Assembly (NCBI GenBank): GCA_951406725.2
Contig: OX597840.1
Location: 28,830,001 to 28,894,000, forward strand
Direction: 5' to 3'
Source of the DNA: Octopus vulgaris
Taxonomy: Eukaryota
DNA length: 64,000 nucleotides
Shown here: piece by piece, positions 39,325-40,085 of the stretch
How the letters are laid out: every line of letters starts with the position of its first letter
Numbering within the stretch: the first letter of the stretch is position 1
Position numbers and translations under genes: made by a program
Notes under the pieces: generated by a model
The model's database searches: none
Seen by the model: only the letters and a program-made list of their open reading frames with translations
What the model was told of the DNA's origin: nothing

Positions 39325-40085
39325 TCAATGCTGTTTTAAGTGTGTATATTTATTTAACTGAAGCCTGACCAACCTCTGCACAAACCAGCAAATGTTTGAT
39401 TTCTTGATTTCTTTTTATGAATAAAAGTTGCTATCTAGCTCAAAGTGTCTAGGAGTGTCCATCTCTGATGAAGTAAAATTAAACTAAAACTGTGGTGTCT
39501 GATAGTCTGCTGATATCATTCAGAGCATTTTGGTTTTGTTAGCACGTGAAGTCTCTAAAGAGGAATTATTTTTCATTTAATGAAGTTATGCATGTGTACA
39601 TTGATTAAAGTTTGACCAGCTTTCACACTAACTTACAAATATTTCATGTTAATTTTTGTTAATTTCTGTATAGGAATAAAAGTTCCAAGCTAGCTCTAAA
39701 TAACAAAGTGTGTCCATCACTGATGCAGTAAAAATAAACCTGAAACAGCAGTGTCTGATGGTCTACTGATTCTATTTAGAACATCTTGTGTTTTTAACAC
39801 ACCAAGTCTCTACAGAGAAGTTATTTTAACCTAAAGCTGTTTCAGCCTGGCCAGCTTCTGCCAAACCAGCAAATTTGGTAAGATCTATATAGGAATAAGA
39901 GCTCCTAGCCAGTTCCAAAAGAATGGGTGTTTCCATCACTGACAGGACAAAATTTACCCAAAACATGTGTGTCTGATGGTCTGCTGATGCCATTCAGAGC
40001 ATATCTTGTGTTTTTAACACACAATGTCTCTAAAGAGAAAATATTTTAACCTAATGCTGTTTTGCATGTGTATATTTATCCTACA
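39325..40085 (+). repeat. Three diverged tandem units (periods 255 and 219 bp), each with a hammerhead-like motif; retrozyme-like array
   Basis: ccatca-CTGA..-..GAAAC..-GTC-tgatgg variants with cores at 39465, 39720 and 39939. Confidence 0.7.

Follow-up and report, generated by a model that had tools for sequence, protein, structure and literature searches.

A decayed triple hammerhead array in Octopus vulgaris probably derives from a 325-nt non-coding element moved by Penelope-like enzymes

A tandem array with three decayed hammerhead motifs was found in the window, the 64,000-nt stretch of Octopus vulgaris DNA analysed here (GCA_951406725.2, contig OX597840.1, positions 28,830,001 to 28,894,000 of the forward strand). 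In our judgement, the array is probably one decayed insertion of a 325-nt non-coding hammerhead element that was moved by the enzymes of Penelope-like elements (PLEs) and then tripled as DNA after a 73-nt deletion. For the family as a whole we lean, by a narrower measure, towards a retrozyme-type family whose copies record PLE-specific priming, namely two fixed reverse transcription (RT) start sites 38 nt apart and mirror-image arms.

The original prediction of three diverged direct repeats with core spacing of 255 and 219 bp was reproduced both from the letters and by repeat analysis (Table 1). Aligned pairwise, the units are 70-72% identical over 246-447 nt (E 1e-28 to 1e-50), far above chance. 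The predicted span of 39325..40085 captured the core region, but the true extent is larger, from near 39307 to near 40145, and a fourth head and a terminal piece had been missed. The 10-nt match to the monomer linker in unit 1 is weak (8/10 by eye). The high-copy repeat that adjoins the array has internal GC-rich units of 62-82 bp and an (ATC)n end, and no family sequence was found leftward of it.

Table 1 Features of the array and its 5' neighbour (window positions)
Feature	Position	Strand	Description
Unrelated very high-copy repeat	38779..39306	.	Adjoins array 5' end; outside the element
Unit 1	39307..39569	+	Probable monomer linker, original head (A0), body to ~monomer position 252
Hammerhead 1	39459..39505	+	G12>A; stem I 4/6
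Unit 2	39570..39820	+	Joined to unit 1 over 73-nt deletion (monomer ~252 to 326)
Hammerhead 2	39714..39761	+	A9>C; stem II with one extra base
Unit 3	39821..40039	+	Identical deletion junction; extra private deletions near unit 3 head
Hammerhead 3	39933..39979	+	G8>A, A9>G, G12>A; stem II broken
Fourth head	40040..40077	+	Monomer 1-35, approximately the length of the family tail; after third deletion junction
Terminal piece	40078..40145	+	Monomer ~268-330; stops at the commoner 3' end of the family

Each unit carries a hammerhead motif at the place and with the lesions first described. The 5' arm of stem I and the first core segment read CCATCT-CTGATGA (39459-39471), CCATCA-CTGATGC (39714-39726) and CCATCA-CTGACAG (39933-39945) in units 1, 2 and 3, followed by AAAAC (39486), GAAAC (39742) and AAAAC (39960) and by GTC cut triplets at 39497, 39753 and 39971. 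Stem I is complete (6/6) in units 2 and 3, and stem II is damaged in both. With one, one and three core changes, respectively, no intact core exists among the window copies, and all three hammerheads are predicted to be inactive. An Rfam scan gave no hammerhead match in the window region or at two other loci (L038 and L032), all of which are decayed copies; the hammerhead call therefore rests on the family alignment and not on a library match.

A contig from a second species aligns without gaps over 39523-40369 and differs at 11 positions. Ten of these differences are listed, and all of them lie outside cores 2 and 3, which suggests that the array and its lesions are older than the split from that species. 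Nine of these 10 lie in the first 190 nt and one in the following 657 nt; the low-difference stretch extends beyond the array end and is thus not hammerhead-specific.

The unit is not confined to a single locus but belongs to an old dispersed family, of which 85 distinct loci were collected. Unit 2 found 17 matches in the 2.8-Gb genome (227 contigs). With three further copies as queries, 41, 42 and 44 matches were obtained among 130, 182 and 64 candidates, with 40 scored and the best 30 used for each. Window duplicates, L051 and 31 loci of a young PLE were excluded before the profile test. Merging of overlaps and of one four-copy segmental duplication left 86 loci, of which 85, the window included, match the family profile; this sample is biased toward better-preserved copies. 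An 18-letter pattern had eight exact genome matches, compared with none for a control; L051, which carries this pattern and no other family sequence, was dropped as a chance match. Four of the seven family matches to the exact 18-mer were already in the collection at that stage, and on this basis the family as a whole probably numbers in the low hundreds of copies. Four near-identical family loci lying 17-27 kb apart on contig C21 (L098, L099, L100 and L103) are a recent large tandem or segmental duplication, and L065 carries two more hammerhead-like motifs on both strands, one of them like that of the young PLE.

Read across tail-to-head junctions, the unit closes after 325 nt (34.5% GC), so the family monomer is larger than the 220-255 nt originally proposed. 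It contains no ORF: the unit closes on itself, leaving no RT and GIY-YIG reading frame. Copies are mostly single or partial-tandem, and long arrays are absent among the 85 loci. Two or more hammerhead-spanning pieces occur at nine of the 85, the window triple being the longest; two such pieces stand in tandem at eight (one core is deleted at L015, and the pieces lie apart at L108). Among 82 long pieces of the loci collected, the non-CpG distance to the majority sequence averaged 0.20 with a minimum of 0.13, and no young copies were seen. Since even the closest of these copies is 13% diverged from the majority, the family looks extinct. A 35-letter core pattern likewise found only one copy within one mismatch, with no young subfamily visible.

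Judged from its majority sequence, the family carries a type I hammerhead of canonical form. Across 90 core-spanning pieces the majority core is C3 U4 G5 A6 G7 G8 A9 and G12 A13 A14 with GUC at the cut, and the type I core, including A15.1-U16.1 and H17, is the majority at every position. The GAAA half of the predicted CUGAUGA...GAAA consensus was borne out, whereas the first half was not, the family core being CUGAGGA. Taken literally, this satisfies the condition for refutation that was set at first, although hammerhead position 7 is known to vary; here it is G in 60, A in 22 and U in 6 of the 90 copies. The C11.1-G12 dinucleotide is TG in 36 pieces, CA in 26, CG in 16, TA in 4 and other in 8. 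The AAAAC lesion can thus be attributed to decay of this CpG, which also accounts for the deficit of G12 (present in 56/90). The ten invariant core positions besides G12 are retained in 819 of 896 cells, and 24 of the 90 pieces retain all invariant bases. Core conservation is 91%, compared with 73-86% in the remainder of the unit; the better-kept core would agree with selection acting on the source copies, although part of the difference may come from the way in which copies were found.

The helices comprise a 6-bp stem I, a 4-bp stem II, a 3-bp stem III and a 10-bp distal stem I, and the helix sizes equal those of canonical animal type I motifs (PMC4209133). Over 44 copies, 78% of 990 cells are paired (stem I 83%, stem II 71%, stem III 88%, distal stem I 75%), compared with 29-38% in slid-partner controls. 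Cells changed on both sides number 60, compared with 41 in shuffles; counted by pair, both-side-changed pairs are not above shuffles (11 vs 12.3). Covariation was weighed lightly because symmetric CpG decay can mimic compensation. It should be noted that the isolated majority fragment has a fold of lower energy than the hammerhead (-26.3 kcal/mol constrained vs -30.4 kcal/mol, z -1.9). Folded as a circle, the majority monomer, which is not a real copy, is 63% paired (z -2.9 vs 100 shuffles).

The same alignment bears on another reading of the motifs, in which the array would be a tandem cluster of C/D box snoRNAs, with TGATGA and CTGA in a short terminal stem. Unit 2 does have a weak Rfam match to SNORD72 (24.3 bits, E 3.4, with a gathering score of 43). 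However, box C (RUGAUGA) needs U where the family has G or A (U in only 6/90), and the copies are dispersed, truncated and inverted in the manner of retroelement insertions. The family alignment rules this reading out, and we give it almost no weight.

Returning to the type I hammerhead family, we considered how its longest array arose. The same 73-nt deletion (monomer ~252 to 326) joins the units and occurs three times in the array. A genome search with the junction pattern gave two matches, both inside the array; the pattern missed the most decayed third junction, and with one of three known junctions missed, absence at other loci is unproven. The window units are 72-75% identical to each other, compared with 62.5 ± 5.6% for 1229 other pairs, and they form one clade with support of 98/92 in a tree of 47 rows whose bootstrap had not settled. 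CpG outcomes are alike in all three units at 4 of 14 sites, compared with 1.3 expected (P 0.034). Heads 2 and 4 have GCATG in common, a motif that head 1 does not have and that only 2 of 59 other heads carry. The junction pattern, the clade, the shared CpG outcomes and the shared head bases together favour one two-headed insertion, followed by deletion and amplification in place.

Alternatively, the triple may be a primary concatemer, in which a deleted 253-nt circular RNA was reverse-transcribed for three rounds in one event from the tail site, in line with the rolling-circle model for retrozymes. In its favour, the common ancestor of the units had an intact core, and its two core CpGs decayed differently in units 1, 2 and 3 (TA, TG and CA at C11.1-G12; TG, TG and CA at N7-G8). 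The fourth head stops at ~360, by the 358-378 cluster of family 3' ends, as a primary insertion would, and tandem pairs of hammerhead-spanning pieces exist at other loci (8/85). However, the array ends in, and probably starts with, sequence that is absent from the deleted unit, the derived bases common to heads 2 and 4 are missing from head 1, and the genome pattern search found no other locus with the deletion junction. We therefore regard the concatemer as unlikely. The triple is likely to have grown in place, through amplification of one deleted copy as DNA, and not to have been inserted as a single ribozyme multimer, so that of the original "decayed retrozyme multimer" the decayed retrozyme-type unit is retained and the primary multimer is not.

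How the family was inserted can be read from the ends of its copies. Of 110 3' ends examined, 90 were terminal: 36 fall at 318-338 (median 329), 19 at 358-378 (median 367), 10 between them and 25 elsewhere. The two clusters are 38 nt apart and lie ~145 and ~180 nt beyond the cut site in the 3' direction, and a shuffled-tail control got to 358-378 in only 0.6%. The 5' ends are scattered across the 85 loci. Inverted arms stand head-to-head on the 5' side at 25 of the 85 loci, and tail-to-tail arms on the 3' side at none; 17 of the 25 inverted arms get to the standard 3' region and 8 do not. A tail-to-head junction is present at 22 of the 85 loci. No piece out of 155 ends near the ribozyme cut site and only one begins there. 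Since copies continue through the cut site and the head-tail junction, the RNA template would have been an uncleaved multimer or a religated circle.

These footprints resemble those of PLEs, whose marks include partial tandems, an inverted 5' copy and a tail of 30-40 bp at one end, the last being unseen in non-LTR elements according to the cited section of PMC8557442. In PLEs, RT can start at either of two internal sites located 3' of the hammerhead, and the tail is the sequence that separates them; hammerhead cleavage is not required for PLE insertion in vitro (PMC11167929). With its fixed 3' ends and optional tail, 5' truncation, partial tandems and inverted 5' arm, the family fits the features of a non-autonomous PLE, and the element was likely copied and inserted by Penelope-like retrotransposon enzymes.

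We looked for an autonomous partner around the copies and found none. The flanks of internal ends have no common body (50 upstream, 30 downstream and 88 beyond the tail), and only common repeats and microsatellites were matched; the internal ends without a shared flanking body suggest that the unit is non-autonomous. Two candidate partners were rejected: a PLE ORF beside L022, which belongs to a young unrelated family of at least 150 copies at 98-100% identity whose pLTR has no match, and a GIY-YIG remnant in L004, which is old, on the opposite strand and 600 nt away. A tblastn search with the single protein of the L022 PLE found no adjacent same-strand remnant at family loci, and neither of the two PLE-type families examined has pLTR sequence in common with the family. 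Pfam gave no match even to an intact RT fragment of a PLE, so the flanks were not judged by Pfam. A very young autonomous PLE (L057/L058-L087, e.g., L078) has an open frame of 717 aa that includes RT and GIY-YIG-like parts and at least 150 copies at 98-100% identity, from 16,524 candidates, and is possibly active. Its pLTR hammerhead begins CCGA(U/A)GA instead of CUGA and has a long stem II, and two kinds of end occur among its copies, a short form and one with a ~70-nt tail.

The PLE-like character of every insertion mark would also suit a family made merely of pLTR stumps, left by an extinct autonomous PLE through 5' truncation, with no independently mobile element; in a second hammerhead family of the window, homology does continue upstream into a common body. 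In the array's family, however, what lies upstream of the hammerhead is its own tail, recurring after 325 nt at 22 of the 85 loci and at more with short tails, and the 50 upstream and 30 downstream internal ends have no shared body. We consider the stump origin largely refuted and quite improbable, and retain the independently mobile, non-autonomous unit.

The window contains other repeats of interest. Better-preserved type I hammerhead motifs lie on the minus strand at 4110-4456 (motif 4181-4213) and on the plus strand at 34797-34833; both have a short stem I and a palindromic AGCT in stem III, and the likeness of the second to the family of the first was judged by eye. The sequences of the 4181 family do not match those of the array, and its membership in the array's family was rejected. 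A search for the 4181 family gave 4482 candidates at 85-88% identity, with inverted partner copies and homology extending upstream, features as expected for putative 5'-truncated PLE 3' ends. A 253-bp unit is repeated 1.9 times in tandem at 6408-6891 with 89% identity.

The family resembles the metazoan non-LTR retrozymes described in PMC7229834 in having a non-coding monomer within 150-450 bp, GC content below 50%, a canonical type I hammerhead, head-to-tail copies and autonomous PLEs in the same genome. In accordance with the original prediction, its size and composition (325 nt, 34.5% GC, no shared coding body) fit a non-LTR retrozyme. Unlike those retrozymes, it consists mostly of monomers and partial tandems and looks extinct; the fixed dual 3' ends and inverted arms are absent from the retrozyme description in the cited sections of PMC7229834. 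On sequence features, the family is of the non-LTR retrozyme type and appears to work like a non-autonomous PLE. We found no report of a cephalopod retrozyme in the literature, and the supplement of PMC7229834 on further invertebrate retrozymes could hold one.

EN+ PLEs such as Poseidon PAc (PMC11167929, PMC8557442) share the 5' truncation, partial tandems, inverted 5' arm and optional tail of 30-40 nt, the mark of two sites 3' of the hammerhead at which RT starts. The family differs from them in its 325-nt unit without an ORF, and its hammerhead is canonical whereas most animal PLEs are reported with the minimal type (PMC4209133). Chlamys PLEs such as MRC1 (PMC8557442) are also non-autonomous, with pLTRs and head-to-tail multicopy insertions, but they are green algal and belong to a clade without canonical hammerheads. 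A recent preprint (bioRxiv 10.64898/2026.07.22.740005) proposed that retrozymes are derived from PLE pLTRs and that tandems can be built by local amplification, arguing from co-occurrence and sequence trees in 31 vertebrates, 3 insects and 1 anthozoan. In its cited portions the preprint offers no analysis of a "tail" or of insertion footprints; here the PLE link comes from footprints. The window triple falls outside the preprint's definition of "active" because no window hammerhead is complete.

These observations can be arranged in a possible sequence of events. Tandem copies would be transcribed, a PLE protein would nick AT-rich DNA, and reverse transcription would start at two internal sites of the RNA, with copying running back through the hammerhead and the head-tail junction. 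At the window locus, the direct-repeat heads may have served unequal crossing-over or slippage, and all three hammerheads would have decayed after amplification.

The window locus is a fossil, probably without function, and the family is of modest importance. Its history nevertheless carries a caution, that a hammerhead tandem need not be a rolling-circle product. Decay of the CpG at C11.1-G12 lets old families escape motif searches and can pass for covariation. The enzyme that moves animal retrozymes is not deducible from their sequence, according to reviews (PMC7761336). Mapping the ends of dispersed copies costs little and could serve as a test in live retrozyme families of coral, mussel or axolotl. 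If our reading is true, the octopus copies would be direct evidence, from insertion footprints, that animal retrozymes are mobilised by the enzymes of PLEs and not by LINEs, and that their copying starts internally, at a position independent of the ribozyme cut.
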